Origin: a virus | DNA: 64,000 nt | Direction: 5' to 3' (one strand) | IMG/VR virus record: IMGVR_UViG_3300038558_000079 | Span: 1 to 64,000 of that record | Shown here: positions 3,565 through 19,434 of the stretch, in pieces | How the letters are laid out: each line of letters begins with the position of its first letter | How positions within the stretch are numbered: position 1 is the first letter of the stretch | Notes under the pieces: generated by a model | Seen by the model: the letters and a program-made list of their open reading frames with translations, nothing else | What the model was told of the DNA's origin: nothing | The model's database searches: none | Program-made: the position numbers and the translations under genes

Positions 3565-4038
3565 ATGGATTTACAAGCGTATCAAGATTTTCTAATTGAC
3601 TATTCTAATAACTTAAATACCGATATTCCTTTGCCTACAATAGCGAGATTAGGGTTGATGGCTAAATCGGGAAAAGTGATAGGGGCACTGATGGAGAACA
3701 AGGTAGATGCGATCGCGCTCAAAGATGATTTAGGAGATACCTTATCATATTTTCTGCTAGTCCTGAATCATCTAGAAATGCCTTTAATAGCAATCGGGGC
3801 TATAGGTGGTTGTCTTCAGGTTCCTTTAGCAGATAACTACTTGTTCTGTGCAAGGAACCTATACACATGCGTTGACAGTTTTCTCAGGCTTAAGCTTGCA
3901 CGCGAGTCACTCGAATTATTAATAGCCATTATACGAATAGGGTTACTCTATGACATTAAACTTGAGGATATTGTGTCTTATAGCTGGGACAAACTTAAGA
4001 AGCGGTTAGATGAGGGTGAATTGCAAGGATTTTGTTGA
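3565..4038 (+). CDS. MazG-like NTP pyrophosphohydrolase fold protein, degenerate
   Basis: MDLQAYQ..LGLMAKSGKV..LKDDLGDTLSY..LEDIV...DKLKKR resembles MazG-like LGL.GE.GE/ELGD motifs with E to K changes; start moved to 3565, downstream of the promoter. Confidence 0.6.
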   Translation: MDLQAYQDFLIDYSNNLNTDIPLPTIARLGLMAKSGKVIGALMENKVDAIALKDDLGDTLSYFLLVLNHLEMPLIAIGAIGGCLQVPLADNYLFCARNLYTCVDSFLRLKLARESLELLIAIIRIGLLYDIKLEDIVSYSWDKLKKRLDEGELQGFC

Positions 4039-4082
4039 CCTCTCCCCGGTCTAAAGACACGGGGCTTTCAGCGACTCATCTT
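4035..4082 (-). mobile_element. 48-bp single-hairpin IS200/IS605 mini-element (PATE-like), copy A
   Basis: Reverse complement reads TTAC|aagatgagtcgctgaaagccccgtgtctttagaccggggagaggTCAA, i.e. the left and right ends of 12210-13846 fused through the shared hairpin. Confidence 0.9.
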
Positions 4083-4165
4083 GTAAATTCGTAACGCATA
4101 TCAAATCTATCGGCAATGTCAGTAAATGTATTATACTAAGAGAGTAAACACAAAGGAGAGACAAG

Positions 4166-9998: not shown

Positions 9999-10022
9999 AA
10001 TTAAGGTGTCTAACTTCGATTA

Positions 10023-10532
10023 TTGAACATGGAAAACCCTGTGACTACCGACGGCCTTAGCACAAACATAAAGCTAATCTATGACTATACTGAACAAGCA
10101 ATTAAAGTGGTAGATGCAAGCATTGACAGGTTAAATCTAAAGTTAGGACTAGTTTTTAGCTTAGATATAATCCTGATTTACTTTTTTATCAGCATTGCAG
10201 ATATCACCCCATTTCTACACTGTACATTGTGCTTAATATTAAGGATAATAAGTTACCACTTCTTAATATTCTCATTGTGCTTTTGCCTGTCTGGATTTAA
10301 GCCTAAGAAAAGCGGTTCCCTCATCCTACCTGAAGAATTGATAGAGAAATGCCTCACTATATCAGACTATCAGTACAGGGTTTTGATCGTAGAGAGTTGG
10401 AATCGTTCAATCAAGGATTTGGCAGAGAGTAGAGACTTAACATCAGTACAGTTAGATAGTGCCATCGCCAACTTAGCACTGGCTGCTATCTTTGCAGCCA
10501 TAAGTGCAATGGCATCTGTATTATTAGGGTAG
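10023..10532 (+). CDS. Membrane protein (about 3 TM segments), possible moron
   Basis: Three hydrophobic stretches. Confidence 0.65.
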   Translation: MNMENPVTTDGLSTNIKLIYDYTEQAIKVVDASIDRLNLKLGLVFSLDIILIYFFISIADITPFLHCTLCLILRIISYHFLIFSLCFCLSGFKPKKSGSLILPEELIEKCLTISDYQYRVLIVESWNRSIKDLAESRDLTSVQLDSAIANLALAAIFAAISAMASVLLG

Positions 10533-10557
10533 GGTATCCATTCTAGAATAGTAGGTC

Positions 10558-10728
10558 ATGAACACACCAAAAAAAGAGATAAGTATTTACGATATCGCCT
10601 ATTTCAATTGGCTGAGAAAAATAGTTGTGGAGACTCACCAATTGGAAGTAGAGAAAGTTGCAGCAGAATACAATAGGAAACTTGCTGAAACTAAAGTAGA
10701 GGGAACCATTGACCTCTCCCCGGTCTAA
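10558..10728 (+). CDS. Small hypothetical protein, C-terminus altered by mini-element B
   Basis: MNTPKKEISIYDIAYFNWLRKIVVETHQLEVEKVAAEYNRKLAETKVEGT then IDLSPV* from the element. Confidence 0.55.
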   Translation: MNTPKKEISIYDIAYFNWLRKIVVETHQLEVEKVAAEYNRKLAETKVEGTIDLSPV

Positions 10729-10756
10729 AGACACGGGGCTTTCAGCGACTCATCTT
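10709..10756 (-). mobile_element. 48-bp single-hairpin IS200/IS605 mini-element, copy B
   Basis: Identical to 4035-4082, followed by GTAA (TTAC target). Confidence 0.9.
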
Positions 10757-10999
10757 GTAAGAATTAAGCCCTGGATAATACTAGCTGTTATCCTTTGGTG
10801 TATGGTGCAACACTTTAGATGCAGAGTGAATAGCAAGAAAGTTATTTGACAGTGTGGGGTTTTTATGCCCGGTAAATATTAGTAAAGTTGAGAAATGGCA
10901 GTGACACAGCGTAACGTACATCGACCCATACAGTAGTCAAATGAACAACTTTGCATTAAATCCGATAAAAATCCCCGAATCCCTCTCTCTATACACCTT

Positions 11000-11057
11000 C
11001 TGGCTTCCGACATGTTCTATCCTATATAGTAATTGAAAACAACATGTCGGAAGCCAG
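11000..11057. repeat. Dispersed palindrome copy 5
   Basis: ctggcttccgacatgtt-N24-aacatgtcggaagccag; both arms carry complementary changes. Confidence 0.97.
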
Positions 11058-11144
11058 GAGTTAATGCAGGCAAAGGATGTAGCGTTTTCGAGAACCAAGT
11101 TTTAACAACCTCAAAAACACCGCTAAAATACCCTTTTACACCCC

Positions 11145-11173
11145 TTGACATCTTAGAGGAATTGAATTAGTAT
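11145..11173 (+). promoter_or_regulatory. Cassette-associated sigma70 promoter upstream of omegaRNA
   Basis: TTGACA-17-TAGTAT. Confidence 0.75.
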
Positions 11174-11179
11174 GGATAC

Positions 11180-11440
11180 AGTAAAACAAAAGAAAGCAAA
11201 GTCAACAACCCCGGTCTAAAGACACGGGGCTTCCAGCCTAAAAAACTGAAGCCCGGAAGTTGACCAGCCTCAGTCGCAAGACTACGTTATCGGTAAGCGT
11301 TAAAGTTCATACCAGGAAATGCGAAGCTAGTTTCCTGCTCTAGAACCGAAAAGTTAAACAGGCGTAACGGGTTAAGTCAGTGCTTTTTGGATAGTACCGA
11401 CCGATAACATTGGCGAAGCTAACTTTACTCCGAAAGGAGA
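11180..11440 (+). ncRNA. HEARO / IscB omegaRNA with a 5' guide derived from flanking DNA
   Basis: gtcaacaacccc..ggggctt..gttgaccagcctcagt..gactacgttat..atacc.ggaaatgcgaagctagtttcc.gctcta..gttaaaca..cagtgc..ataacattggcgaagctaactttac matches the HEARO consensus order; ends approximate. Confidence 0.85.
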
Positions 11441-11570
11441 TTGAGGCAACCATACCTCACCGGAGGGGCAACCATACCCCTCCACCCTGAAAGGGGCAGG
11501 CGGTTAAAACCGCTTCCACATGTTCCTCTCCGGTCTAAAGACGCGGAGTTTCCCACAACGAAGGAATTTT
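11201..11570 (+). mobile_element. Non-autonomous IscB-type IS200/IS605 element lacking iscB
   Basis: Terminal hairpins ccccggtctaaagacacgggg and ctccggtctaaagacgcggag; flanked 3' by ATGA. Confidence 0.85.
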
Positions 11571-11813
11571 ATGACACCTTACCAACATTGTATCGAAACA
11601 GTACAGTTACTCCCTACAGTCTTTGTAGTCGCTTATGTGAATTGGTTAGGGGACTGGGTGATGGACACTCAGGAATTCAGAACAGAGAAGTCTGCACTGG
11701 CGCATAGTAGGGTTTTAGCCAAGACTAAGGCTGAGAACGGACGGGTTAGTGTCAGGAAAGTTATTAGTTCCAAGTTTAAAAGAGCTAAATTGCAACAGAA
11801 CACAAAACGTTGA
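11571..11813 (+). CDS. Hypothetical protein (80 aa)
   Basis: ATG immediately after the element, with an element-supplied AAGGA RBS. Confidence 0.65.
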   Translation: MTPYQHCIETVQLLPTVFVVAYVNWLGDWVMDTQEFRTEKSALAHSRVLAKTKAENGRVSVRKVISSKFKRAKLQQNTKR

Positions 11814-11838
11814 CATTCTCCGGTTTTTGTGTTAGACT
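11810..11838 (+). promoter_or_regulatory. Sigma70 promoter for candidate ncRNA 1
   Basis: TTGACA-17-TAGACT. Confidence 0.65.
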
Positions 11839-12268
11839 TACTTATGACATAAGTTCTCGACACTAGCATAAAGGTTAGTGAGTCCCCTGAGAAGAGAACC
11901 CTAATTTCTTTTAAGTTACCCAAGTCACAGACAGGCTTGGGTAACTTAACCGTATGCCATTGCACGCTTTGAGCGTTTTCAGGGAATGGTTATTCATCTA
12001 GTGGTACTTTTCGACGTTTTTCAACGATGCGTCACCACGATCGCGACCGTTTTGTTGCCTACCTTCCCGTAGCTCACCCCTTTGTTGTAATTGCGCAGAA
12101 CTGTGGGGCGATCGTCGGACATGTGTCACCCGCTGGGGCGACAGCTACTGTAGTAAGCATCCGGTCTTCCTTTGATAGAGTCCACGAAAGTGAAGCCGAA
12201 GTACTTTACAAGATGAGTCGCTGAAAGCCCCGTGTCTTTAGACCGGGGATGAAAGCGCTTTGCAGGAT

Positions 12269-12457
12269 TTATCCTACCTTCCAGATCTCGATCAATTCAG
12301 GTAACGCCGATCTTAGCCGCTCTTGCCAATCAGGGACAGATTTTAATTCTTTGGCTAATTCTACATCCATCCTTAAGCAGACTGGACTACTGACCAATGG
12401 TTTTTCTCGGTTAGTCGTAAAACCTTGTTTATGTTTTTTCTGAAATGGCATTGACAT
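12269..12457 (-). CDS. Small RHH/CopG-like protein in the IS
   Basis: PVCLRMDVELAKELKSVPDWQERLR beta-helix-helix pattern; divergent from tnpB. Confidence 0.55.
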   Translation of the reverse strand: MSMPFQKKHKQGFTTNREKPLVSSPVCLRMDVELAKELKSVPDWQERLRSALPELIEIWKVG

Positions 12458-12514
12458 CTTCTAACTACATGCGTATACTTATATTATAAGTCCGAAGCAG
12501 GAGGTGTCAATAAG

Positions 12515-13813
12515 TTGTACGGATGCCAACAGAATTTAATTAGTCCCACTCCAGAATTAAAGGCAATCCTTGAGTTTATCTGTTCAGAATCACATAAGCT
12601 GACTAACTGCGGTATCTACTATGCCCGTCAGTTATATTTCAAGACTCGTAAGTTAATTGGTAAGTACGACTTAGAAAAAGAGTACAAAGCCAACAAGCAC
12701 TATCAGGTCTTGCATTCTCAAGCCGCACAGCAAGTATTGAGAACAGTTGCTGAGTCTTTTCAATCTTTTAAGGAGTTAGATAAGAAGTACAGCAAGGGCG
12801 ACTTACATTTTAAACCCAAGCTGCCCAAATACCGTCAAGGCGCTGGTTATGCTCTAGTGACTTATCCTAAACAAGCTTTAAGACTTGTAGGTAACAATAT
12901 CAAAGTTCCGCTGGGCACGACAGTAAAAAGATGGTTTAAACTTGAATATTTCTTGTTGCCAATGCCATCCAATTTGGAGTTTGAGGACATCAAGGAATTG
13001 CGGATACTCCCACGTAATCAATGCTTCTATTCTGAGTTGGTCTACAAACAGAAACCAGCACCATCAAACACTTTCAATCAAAATAATGCGTTAGCAATTG
13101 ACCCCGGTATCAACAACTGGTTAAGCTGTGTATCCAATGTGGGGACTAGCTTCATTGTTGATGGACGTAAAGTTAAAAGTCTTAATCAGTGGTACAATAA
13201 GCGCGTTTCCACTCTCAAGGAAGGTAAACCACAAGGCTATTGGGATGAGCAGTTAGCCCAGATAACTGAAAAACGCAATCGCCAGATGCGTGACGCTGTT
13301 AATAAGGCGGCTAGATTGGTTGTTGACCACTGTATTAAATACCATATTGGCACGGTTATCTTTGGGTGGAACCAAGGACAACGGCAAGAGGCTAAATTAG
13401 GTAAAACAACTCAGGCTTTTGTTCAAATACCAACAGCCAAATTAAAAAAACGAATTGAACAACTGTGTGAGTATCACGGAATTAAGTTTGTTGAAGCAGA
13501 AGAATCTTATACTAGCAAAGCTAGTTTTCTAGATGGTGATTTTCTACCAACCTACGGCGAAAAACCCGAAACGTGGAAGCCAACAGGAAAACGAGTTAAA
13601 CGTGGAATGTACTGCACTGGCAAAGGTGTTCTAATCAACGCTGATTTGAACGGAGCCGCCAATATAATGCGGAAAGTAGAGACACAACTGGGCTTAAGTC
13701 TAGTCAAGGTCTGTAGGGCATTATTGACCGTGCCTACCAGATTTAAAATCTGGGAAACCAAAACCAAAAAGCGGAACCGGACGGCTTTAGCCTCCGGTGT
13801 AGCAACAGTTTAG
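12515..13813 (+). CDS. tnpB: RNA-guided endonuclease TnpB
   Basis: AIDPGINN, IFGWN, EESYTSKAS, NADLNGAANI. Confidence 0.95.
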   Translation: MYGCQQNLISPTPELKAILEFICSESHKLTNCGIYYARQLYFKTRKLIGKYDLEKEYKANKHYQVLHSQAAQQVLRTVAESFQSFKELDKKYSKGDLHFKPKLPKYRQGAGYALVTYPKQALRLVGNNIKVPLGTTVKRWFKLEYFLLPMPSNLEFEDIKELRILPRNQCFYSELVYKQKPAPSNTFNQNNALAIDPGINNWLSCVSNVGTSFIVDGRKVKSLNQWYNKRVSTLKEGKPQGYWDEQLAQITEKRNRQMRDAVNKAARLVVDHCIKYHIGTVIFGWNQGQRQEAKLGKTTQAFVQIPTAKLKKRIEQLCEYHGIKFVEAEESYTSKASFLDGDFLPTYGEKPETWKPTGKRVKRGMYCTGKGVLINADLNGAANIMRKVETQLGLSLVKVCRALLTVPTRFKIWETKTKKRNRTALASGVATV

Positions 13814-13945
13814 AATCCCCGTGTCTTTAGACCGGGGAGAGGTCAAAGTGATTTGAAGTTCTAGCAGTAGCAGTCTCATCTGACACTACCCCAATGGTAT
13901 GCGGTGTAAGGGTTTTAGGAATCTAAAGATTATTTTATAAAAGTA

Positions 13946-17309: not shown

Positions 17310-17539
17310 GAGAGTCTTACACCGAATGCGTTGTAGGCTTTTTGTGAACCAAGTTTTGAAAAGTGCTTTGGGATGCCCTTCCCTGTCTGTTTTCTCTAAT
17401 GACGGTTGTGGTGAGGGGAGTTTCGAGGTATGATAGGTATCGTGTAGATAACCCTCATAAGAACACCACCGTCGCTGGAAACTCCGTGTCTTTAGACCGG
17501 AGATGAAGGCGCGGCAGCGGTTTTAACCGCCTAGAGTCT

Positions 17540-17944
17540 TTAACTGTGATGTGGATCATTGATGTACCTCTGAATTGTTTCAGCGCTCACATTGCCAGCC
17601 GTTGAGAAAAAGTAGCTGTTAGTCCACAAAGATGGAAGCTTTTGAAGCTCTGGAAACTCCTTTCTCAGGTAATTGGCTGAACGCCCTTTAAAGGCTTTTA
17701 CCACTTGGTAGATAGCATCAGTTGGATGAATCTCAACAAATAGGTGAATATGGTCAGGAGCCACTTCAAGCGCCCTAATGCGCCAATCTTTCTCCATTGC
17801 CAATTCAGAGAATATCTCGTATATTCTGTCTCGAATTTTACCCACAAGCACCTTTTTGCGACGTTTCGGTATCCAAACAAAATGAACCACGCATAACCCA
17901 ACAGAATGATTATAGTGCCTGTACTCGTATGAATTTTTTCGCAT
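17540..17944 (-). CDS. tnpA: IS200/IS605 Y1 transposase TnpA
   Basis: HFVWIPKRRK, PDHIHL (HUH), LWTNSYF, IQRYI. Confidence 0.96.
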   Translation of the reverse strand: MRKNSYEYRHYNHSVGLCVVHFVWIPKRRKKVLVGKIRDRIYEIFSELAMEKDWRIRALEVAPDHIHLFVEIHPTDAIYQVVKAFKGRSANYLRKEFPELQKLPSLWTNSYFFSTAGNVSAETIQRYINDPHHS

Positions 17945-18010
17945 TTTATCCCCGGCTGGCTTGACTGTTGTTCTTATTGTAGATTATAATAGATAAACCA
18001 ACAAAAGCCA

Positions 18011-19348
18011 GTGAGGTCGAAAATGGCTAAAAACAAGAAACAGCTAGGCGTTCAACAAATACTACTCCATCCCGACAAGGAGACAAAGGCTGTTCTTGAA
18101 TATTTGTGCGAACAGTCCGGTAAGCTGTACAACAGTGGGGTGTATTTTGCGCGTCAAACATTTTTCAAGACTGGTAAGTTACTGACGGGAAAGTTTGACT
18201 TAGTTTATGAGCAAACTGTAGGAAAAAGTCAGATTGCTCAGTCCTTACCGTCAACACCTGCGCAGCAAACATTATTGAGCGTCACCGAAGCGTTTAAATC
18301 CTACAAGGAATTGCGACAGCTCTGGGTTAAAGGACAATTGTCAGATAAGCCAAAACCACCTAATTATTTGAAGGGGTCAAAACTATTTAAGGTGGCATAC
18401 CCTAACTCAGGAGGTCAAAAGCCAAAAACAGTTGATGGGCAACTTCAATTCTCTCTCGGATTAACAGTTAAGCGATGGTTTGGCGTTGACAATTTTAAGC
18501 TACCGATACCAACAAACCTGGATATAACCAAAGTTAAAGAGTGGACAATACTTCCTAAAAATGGTGCATTTTATCTTGAAGCTTCCTACACTCTCGCTCA
18601 AGAGCAAACTTGTCGAGAATTTGCCAATCAAGCATTAGCAATTGACTTGGGTACTGCTGACAACTTAGCAGCTTGCGTTGACACATTAGGCAACTCTTTT
18701 TTGATTGATGCTCGTGCGATGAAAGCTTTCAATCAGTGCTGGAATAAACAAGTAGCAACCAGAAAAGAAAAAAAACCTGAAGGGTATTGGGACGCATGGC
18801 TTGACCGTGTAACTCGTAAGCGCAACCATCGAGTGAGAGATGGTATAAACAAGGCGGCAAGGATTATTGTTAGCCATTGTCTCAAGTACAGAATCGGAAC
18901 AATCGTCATAGGCTGGAATGAAGGCTTTAAGTGCAATGCCAATATGGGTAGATTGAACAATCAAAAATTTGTCCAAATACCATTGGGTAAGCTTAAAGAT
19001 AGGATCGAGCAATTGTGTGACTTGTATGGCATTAGGCTTGTGATAACCGAAGAGTCCTACACAAGCAAAGCTAGTTACTTAGATGGAGACTCCCTACCCA
19101 AATATGGTGAAAAACCAGAAGGGTGGAAAGCATCAGGTAAAAGAACAAAGCGCGGGTTGTACACAAGCAAAAATGGCTCACTAGTAAATGCGGACTTAAA
19201 CGGTGCCGCAAACATAATGAGCAAAGTAGCCAGAAAGCTAGGCATTGACTTAGCCCGACTGGGTAGACGGTCTTTGACAACCGTAACGAGAATCAGATTG
19301 TGGGTACTACCTCAGTCTACTCTGTCTGTAGAATCCCCGTGTCTTTAG
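18011..19348 (+). CDS. tnpB: RNA-guided endonuclease TnpB
   Basis: AIDLG, VIGWN, EESYTSKAS, NADLNGAANI. Confidence 0.95.
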   Translation: MRSKMAKNKKQLGVQQILLHPDKETKAVLEYLCEQSGKLYNSGVYFARQTFFKTGKLLTGKFDLVYEQTVGKSQIAQSLPSTPAQQTLLSVTEAFKSYKELRQLWVKGQLSDKPKPPNYLKGSKLFKVAYPNSGGQKPKTVDGQLQFSLGLTVKRWFGVDNFKLPIPTNLDITKVKEWTILPKNGAFYLEASYTLAQEQTCREFANQALAIDLGTADNLAACVDTLGNSFLIDARAMKAFNQCWNKQVATRKEKKPEGYWDAWLDRVTRKRNHRVRDGINKAARIIVSHCLKYRIGTIVIGWNEGFKCNANMGRLNNQKFVQIPLGKLKDRIEQLCDLYGIRLVITEESYTSKASYLDGDSLPKYGEKPEGWKASGKRTKRGLYTSKNGSLVNADLNGAANIMSKVARKLGIDLARLGRRSLTTVTRIRLWVLPQSTLSVESPCL

Positions 19349-19434
19349 ATCGGGGAGTGTCAAAAACCACTGATGAAAGTCATTTTCCTACTTGACACCC
19401 TTTTGCAAACGAGTAAAAAACTTTCAAGCACCCC

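Follow-up and report, generated by a model that had tools for sequence, protein, structure and literature searches.

IS608 of Helicobacter pylori is the paradigm for the recognition of cleavage sites by DNA guides: under the IS608-type rule, a 4-nt guide at the foot of a hairpin pairs with the cleavage site. In the available text of Meers et al. (bioRxiv 10.1101/2023.03.14.532601), the omegaRNA of IscB is bounded by the right end of its element and its transcription must begin outside the element. In the same text, the IscB element ISGst5 of Geobacillus stearothermophilus is described as having relatives that are PATE-like and encode no protein, and the use of an outside nuclease by such an IscB-type PATE is put forward there as a proposal rather than as a demonstration (Meers et al., bioRxiv 10.1101/2023.03.14.532601). 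The element reported here works like these relatives of ISGst5. It has gene-free IS200/IS605 ends, keeps the omegaRNA and adjoins a TCAT-type transposon-adjacent motif (TAM; TTCAT in ISGst5), and for both it is presumed that TnpA mobilizes the element in trans and that a nuclease with its gene elsewhere uses the omegaRNA. As far as that text covers the ISGst5 PATEs, our element differs from them in being borne by a cyanophage, in lying between a conserved promoter-leader and a start codon, and in having extra hairpins with a CAACCATA loop, a Shine-Dalgarno-like motif at the end and alleles with and without the element in nature. Lacking the nuclease, it falls short of a complete OMEGA system. 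Protein-less omegaRNA PATEs have already been described (Meers et al., bioRxiv 10.1101/2023.03.14.532601). Our literature search returned no account of a protein-less omegaRNA element carried by a phage, nor of filled and empty alleles of one in nature.

The element was found in the first 64 kb (64,000 nt; hereafter, the window) of the linear IMG/VR virus record IMGVR_UViG_3300038558_000079, which is 90,554 bp long and has a completeness rating of 71%. Genes for a portal protein and a tail protein are present in the window, and the carrier of the element is referred to here as a cyanophage. Distant-mode blastn of positions 10000-13000 against the phage GenBank collection gave no match, and queries of IMG/VR with the 80-aa protein encoded beside the element, its 169-aa neighbor, a 1035-aa protein and alignment A1 yielded no confirmed relatives, in a collection from which records very near the window may be missing. 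With a probability of about 85%, we regard the HEARO-bearing feature as a non-autonomous, protein-less IS200/IS605 mini-transposon of the IscB (ISC) type, PATE-like and inserted without a scar before a start codon. The element is made up of a right end with an intact omegaRNA scaffold, two small hairpins and a left end of ~75 nt, and the features of the locus are as follows.

11145..11173, plus strand: sigma-70-type promoter-like site, TTGACA-17 nt-TAGTAT, with 10/12 consensus matches
11180..11200, plus strand: native leader of the 80-aa gene and would-be 5′ omegaRNA guide of ~21 nt, its start assumed ~7 nt after the -10 box
11201..11570, plus strand: probable protein-less IS200/IS605 (IscB-type) mini-transposon, 370 bp, delimited by an exact skip in contigs of runs X2 and X4 and by full-length relatives
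11201..11428, plus strand: omegaRNA scaffold (Rfam HEARO, the omegaRNA of IscB), 157.4 bits
11209..11229: end hairpin CCCCGGTCTAAAGACACGGGG, which forms the initial stem-loop of HEARO; on the minus strand it is a TnpA-type right-end hairpin 8 nt from the boundary
11443..11483, plus strand: two small hairpins with the loop CAACCATA, present in protein-less copies and absent from the IscB-bearing locus L030
11499..11548: left-end module in the TnpA sense, with the small hairpin GGCGGTTAAAACCGC followed by the end hairpin CTCCGGTCTAAAGACGCGGAG (alignment A3)
11549..11552, minus strand: left-end DNA guide GAAA, matched to the target TCAT by covariation
11560..11565, plus strand: Shine-Dalgarno-like GAAGGA from the end of the element, 5 nt ahead of the ATG
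11571..11574, plus strand: ATGA, in which the TAM (minus strand, TCAT) coincides with the start codon and the base after it
11571..11813, plus strand: invaded gene for an 80-aa protein with four homologues at 54-88% identity

A first-pass annotation, made from the letters alone, had called an orphan HEARO scaffold without iscB at this position. The covariance model that it named as a check (Rfam HEARO, RF02033) matched positions 11201-11428 of the plus strand far above its gathering score of 83 (E, 2.5e-33) and over model positions 1-211 of 211, the whole covariance model. This is the sole Rfam match in the 64-kb window and the sole HEARO in the 90,554-bp record. The likeness to the HEARO RNA, the omegaRNA of IscB, thus extends over the full length, and the difference lies in what follows, as no HNH/RuvC ORF stands behind the scaffold. 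An iscB adjoining the omegaRNA marks an IscB OMEGA system; here, 142 nt follow the scaffold and the element stops, giving way to ATGACACC, in which the A of the ATG is base 11571. The two ORFs that touch the element (11441-11707 and 11520-11813) both extend outside it into the flanking gene region, and no gene lies inside the 370 bp. The search for iscB was extended to the whole 90,554-bp record with a cyanobacterial ORF located beside a related HEARO at locus L030, a clear IscB by the NF040563 profile (462 bits). Tblastn with this query gave a best E of 0.9, and the NF040563 profile had no match in the record. The PF14239 (RRXRR) profile was matchless as well, and its result was set aside since the control was likewise matchless. 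As the record is 71% complete, these searches establish that the element is an orphan and apply to the record rather than to the entire phage.

The scaffold of the window copy scores higher than that of the IscB-linked copy at L030 (157 versus 140 bits). Across four protein-less copies, 17-25% diverged from one another, changes on both sides maintain the pairing at 25 of the 88 predicted pairs; these copies may have exchanged sequence with IscB-bearing ones. These four sequences provide modest evidence that the RNA fold may be selected even without a linked nuclease.

All five proteins, the 80-aa product and its four homologues from a large protein collection, begin at the same Met, which fixes the gene start at 11571 and the element at 11201-11570; no Pfam family matched the 80-aa protein. 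An insertion exactly between the leader and the ATG, with the corresponding empty site, had been predicted beforehand, and both were recovered. When public runs were compared with positions 10900-11900, a joint from 11200 to 11571 that skips 370 nt was found in one contig each from the DNA runs X2 and X4, which belong to two studies. The X2 contig (1114 nt) has other letters at 1 of 85 positions before the joint and 5 of 330 after it (6 in 415; flanks ~98.6% identical), its one difference within 11116-11200 not being among the differences listed, and the X4 contig (459 nt) has flanks ~95% identical to the window. Filled and empty alleles therefore coexist in environmental samples in nearly identical phages; they were seen in contigs, which drop rare variants and give no allele frequencies. 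The 370-bp skip can be read either as a gain here or as a loss in the siblings. The metagenome loci L126 (65% identity) and L127 (59%) encode the same small protein without the element and agree with the predicted site, as they have the -35, the -10 and the leader of the window, which runs to ...gaaagcaaa and is then followed directly by ATGG. Locus L125 is likewise element-free, with ATC as its first codon. The closest relative of the 80-aa gene (L124, 88% identity) has its sequence cut at residue 13. At ~500-520 in L124, ~300 nt downstream of the gene, lies a TnpB-type end in the orientation opposite to the window's, so the same intergenic region was struck independently.

The end hairpins at 11209-11229 and 11528-11548 give the minus strand of the element the layout TCAT / 22 nt / hairpin ... 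hairpin / 8 nt / end, as in IS200/IS605. Subterminal hairpins common to TnpA-bearing elements were found at both ends, the empty site is scarless, and the element stands 3′ of a short target of fixed sequence that has not been duplicated. The ~75-nt left-end module, composed of the small hairpin, the end hairpin and a purine-rich motif, aligns with the ends of the phage tnpA element, of the IscB element L030 and of the cyanobacterial loci L017, L018 and L083. Like IS608, the element has subterminal hairpins, a target ~20 nt 5′ of the left hairpin, an end 8-10 nt 3′ of the right hairpin and, on the left-end side, a 4-nt guide at the hairpin foot that covaries with the cleavage site. Unlike IS608, it uses TCAT and not TTAC as its target, and it contains neither tnpA nor tnpB.

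Covariation between guide and flank was followed across the left ends of the family. The 4 nt after the hairpin are TTTC where the flank is ATGA (8/8) and CTTC where it is GTGA (4/4), in a set of 12 left ends with a flank; three more ends had no such flank within range, and three of the eight TTTC flanks sit in a ...CTGATGA context. This covariation fixes TCAT, or ATGA on the omegaRNA strand, as the TAM. In the available texts, GstIscB has TTCAT as its TAM on the 5′ side of the left end (Meers et al., bioRxiv 10.1101/2023.03.14.532601), a motif that agrees with ATGA when reverse complemented, and DtIsrB accepts NTGA and nicks ATGA targets (PMC9581776). The initial proposal of ATGA as the TAM is thus supported by the covariation and is in line with both published motifs.

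At the right ends, those starting with GTCA are paired with CTTG in 9 of 13 cases, with CTTC in two (the window and L071) and with CATC in two, and those starting with GTAA are paired with CTTC or CTTT in 9 of 10 cases and with CTTG in one; several of these 23 ends are near-identical copies and hence not independent. In the window element, the left guide agrees with its target (GAAA/TCAT), and the right end combines GTCA with CTTC, as do L071 and L136. From this right end, the first-pass annotation had suspected an immobilized element. The departure from the commoner pairing is real, whereas the immobility is weakened by the same combination in L136, by a ~97% identical copy at a second locus, by the coexistence of filled and empty alleles and by the report, in the available text of Meers et al. 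(bioRxiv 10.1101/2023.03.14.532601), that excision still took place with mutated right-end motifs, through an alternative boundary. The second-locus copy occurs in X2 and X3 (one study). Among the differences listed for it, none falls within 11201-11439, and its flanks are unlike those of the window beyond 4 nt upstream and 8 nt downstream. The other ATGACACC sites in the record are without those flanks, which places the second locus outside the 90.5 kb of the record.

The 13-nt core of the right-end hairpin is present in 8 copies in the window, against ~1 expected, and in none in the remaining 26 kb. These copies and the Y1 transposase genes of the record are distributed as follows.

11209 and 11528: two hairpin copies, which flank the HEARO element on both sides
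Beside 17540-17944: one hairpin copy, adjoining the Y1 transposase gene tnpA
Ends of 12515-13813 and 18011-19348: two hairpin copies, each at the 3′ end of a tnpB gene
5′ of the first tnpB: one hairpin copy, the left end of that element
Near 4046 and 10720: two solitary hairpin copies
17540..17944, minus strand: Y1 transposase TnpA (PF01797, 129.5 bits; NF033573, 146.6 bits), a candidate mobilizer in trans
86948-87313 of the record, outside the window: second Y1 TnpA gene (PF01797, 141.9 bits)

The tnpA element (17540-17944) has the same left-end module as the HEARO element and abuts ATGA too. No shared end hairpin was found near the second Y1 TnpA gene (86948-87313).

Outside the phage, the 17-nt hairpin core was found at no fewer than 120 loci when one genome per species was considered, nearly all of them in filamentous cyanobacteria. 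Among the matches listed, 121 hairpins were classed as 70 TnpB right ends, 18 HEARO 5′ ends, 6 ATGA-side ends and 27 "other", where the ATGA-side ends were set by a simple rule and several of the 27 are of the same kind. Rfam searches of 20 of these at least 120 loci, chosen by blastn similarity to the element, gave 13 HEARO matches. L018 is a full-length protein-less copy (78% over element positions 6-368), L043 is another protein-less copy (83% over 61-340), and L081 and L119 are two more; the HEARO of all four lies above threshold. Locus L030 has the same ends around a gene for a 426-aa IscB. Both CAACCATA-loop hairpins are present in the four protein-less copies whose pairing was compared, and L030 is without them. 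Behind the second of these hairpins, L081 has a T-run, which the window element does not have. Another viral contig, from IMG/VR (L136), was found with an exact scaffold 22-mer. On its minus strand (1827-2212), a HEARO element of 386 bp (146.3 bits), likewise protein-less, extends right up to the ATGA at which an ORF of 75 aa begins. A search of viral contigs with a 24-nt hairpin pattern gave no match. The cassette of L136 lies between direct repeats of ~35 nt (near 2290-2250 and 1600-1560).

The promoter-like site ahead of the element was one of 13 sites in a scan of the region for which 9.0 +/- 2.7 were expected. As this is not above chance, support for the promoter comes from conservation: L125, L126 and L127 retain the two hexamers, with unchanged spacing, ahead of the same gene, which makes the promoter older than the insertion. 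The leader, whose transcription start was placed by promoter geometry alone, is conserved in L126 and L127 and is unpaired in the minimum-free-energy fold of 11180-11580. Nowhere else in the record is a match to the 16 nt that precede the element followed by a TAM, and at the filled locus these 16 nt are followed by GTCA, not ATGA. No terminator-like site was found on the plus strand within the element, and transcription would thus be expected to continue into the gene. An RNA-library run (X10) held a contig of 316 nt over 11201-11514 at ~93% identity. As a related copy, a contig and possible DNA carry-over, it was rejected as proof that the phage copy is transcribed.

Two observations concern the surroundings of the promoter. 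Near 11188, contigs from X2, X3 and X4 have the promoter and the initial leader bases in common and then run into a different gene. In these phages, the promoter-leader resembles a module that is used repeatedly. Upstream of the promoter, the non-coding stretch at ~10860-11140 contains a long hairpin (arms 10997-11025 and 11032-11060), is conserved in L125-L127, is covered in both X2 and X3 to a summed contig depth that is very high, and may be a module common to many phages in those samples.

That the element end brings its own ribosome-binding motif had also been claimed from the sequence. GAAGGA does stand close to the ATG and is Shine-Dalgarno-like in its letters. A purine-rich motif (GGAGG, GAAGG, GAGGA or AGAGG) is found 5-8 nt from the boundary in 9 of 12 flank-bearing family ends; the phage tnpA end has GGTGG at the same spot, and L081 and L119 have no such motif. 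Only three of 15 family ends (L030, L037 and the window) abut an ORF of at least 60 codons at the ATG/GTG of the flank, in a search that demanded the purine-rich linker motif and from which ends without it had been dropped beforehand; this count lends no support to the idea that most such elements precede a start codon. The ATG within the target accounts for the start-codon placement. The locus also shows how an ATGA-targeting transposon with a ribosome-binding-like motif at its end may enter the start of a gene and leave that gene intact.

Under the mini-transposon reading, a Y1 TnpA, probably that of the phage or of its host, would have acted on the minus strand and pasted the element 3′ of TCAT, which is 5′ of ATGA on the plus strand. 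The native promoter and the ~21-nt leader would then run straight into the omegaRNA scaffold, guide, scaffold and gene would presumably be made as one RNA from this promoter, and the GAAGGA at the element end would be offered to the 80-aa gene as a ribosome-binding site. A host IscB of the same family, if supplied, could load this RNA and cut the leader plus ATGA of the empty allele. The filled allele, with GTCA in place of the TAM, would be spared.

What the omegaRNA does in the phage can be read in different ways. Somewhat better than even odds go to an inert passenger, an RNA that idles in the phage and whose sole effect would be to give the 80-aa gene a long, structured 5′ leader and another ribosome-binding site in place of its own. 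The record holds no iscB, at least four other IS200/IS605-type insertions lie near the HEARO element in the same phage, and the small share of family ends that abut an ORF ascribes the start-codon placement to the ATGA/GTGA target and not to a role. What fits this account poorly is that conservation with compensatory changes among protein-less copies extends over the whole scaffold and not just over the ~30 nt required by TnpA. If it is true, the element would be ordinary IS200/IS605 litter in a cyanophage.

We consider it possible, though rather doubtful, that the element is instead a working drive that consists of a guide only. The early promoter would make guide and omegaRNA, and a host IscB would cut element-free co-infecting siblings at the leader/ATGA, converting them by homing or excluding them. 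The targets exist in nature in the empty alleles of X2 and X4, the TAM is absent from the filled allele, and the conserved promoter lies ~21 nt ahead of a scaffold that is intact, outscores the IscB-linked copy at L030 and retains compensatory changes in protein-less copies. Filamentous cyanobacteria have IscB elements with the same ends, the ~97% identical copy has unlike flanks and the same first 8 nt after the element, and trans use of PATE omegaRNAs is proposed in the available text of Meers et al. (bioRxiv 10.1101/2023.03.14.532601). However, L126 and L127 carry ATGG rather than ATGA and would not be targets, and the one difference of the X2 empty contig within 11116-11200, not being among those listed, counts on the same side. 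Trans use of a host IscB by the phage copy is accorded a similarly low likelihood. A nuclease-free phage gene drive in the full sense, which would borrow a host cyanobacterial IscB, use the conserved promoter, spread by homing or sibling exclusion and be made nearly cost-free by the ribosome-binding site of the element, seems improbable to a slightly greater degree.

Should IscB act in trans, the outcome would be the same as for phage homing endonuclease genes (intron/intronless homing; in the available text of PMC13565253), namely that the element-free allele of co-infecting relatives is cut. The locus would differ from such genes in that the nuclease is borrowed from the host and only the guide travels with the phage. 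It offers a clean natural test bed for trans use of an omegaRNA and for phage-to-phage homing: a conserved promoter and a ~21-nt leader define the guide, the start codon together with its next base is the TAM, near-identical phages exist both with and without the element, and a TnpA with matching ends is encoded in the same genome. A third account, in which a full IscB element arrived in the phage and lost its iscB there, is very unlikely, because the same protein-less layout with its tail hairpins in cyanobacterial genomes (78-83% identity) and in L136 makes the loss of iscB old and earlier than the arrival in the phage, and because the 370-bp copy recurs at another locus with ~97% identity.

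Apart from the mini-transposon itself, several neighboring insertions of the same general type were noted. A composite element at ~17459-19363 has an IscB/ATGA-type left end and a TnpB-type right end; its tnpA (17540-17944, minus strand) reads toward the left end, and a divergent tnpB occupies 18011-19348. Just upstream of the tnpA start, on the minus strand, lies a hairpin-less GTCAAGCCAGCC, which may be a HEARO-side end that was truncated. A TnpB-only IS at ~12210-13846 contains tnpB (12515-13813; NF040570, 182 bits), has TTAC before its left end and ends on the right in a hairpin plus AGAGGTCAA. Its guide/cleavage pairs are AAAG/TTAC and GAAT/TCAA, the pairs of IS608. A single-hairpin micro-element of ~48 nt is present in two copies (4035-4086 and 10709-10760); its minus strand reads TTAC / 18 nt / shared hairpin / AGAGGTCAA, that is, TnpB-type left and right flanks around one hairpin, and L125 is without it at the position corresponding to 10709-10760. 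Together with the TnpB element's left end, the micro-element forms a perfect 44-nt inverted repeat (10717-10760 / 12206-12249), which encloses 1.45 kb comprising the HEARO element, the 80-aa gene and a conserved non-coding unit, and which could permit inversion or recombination.
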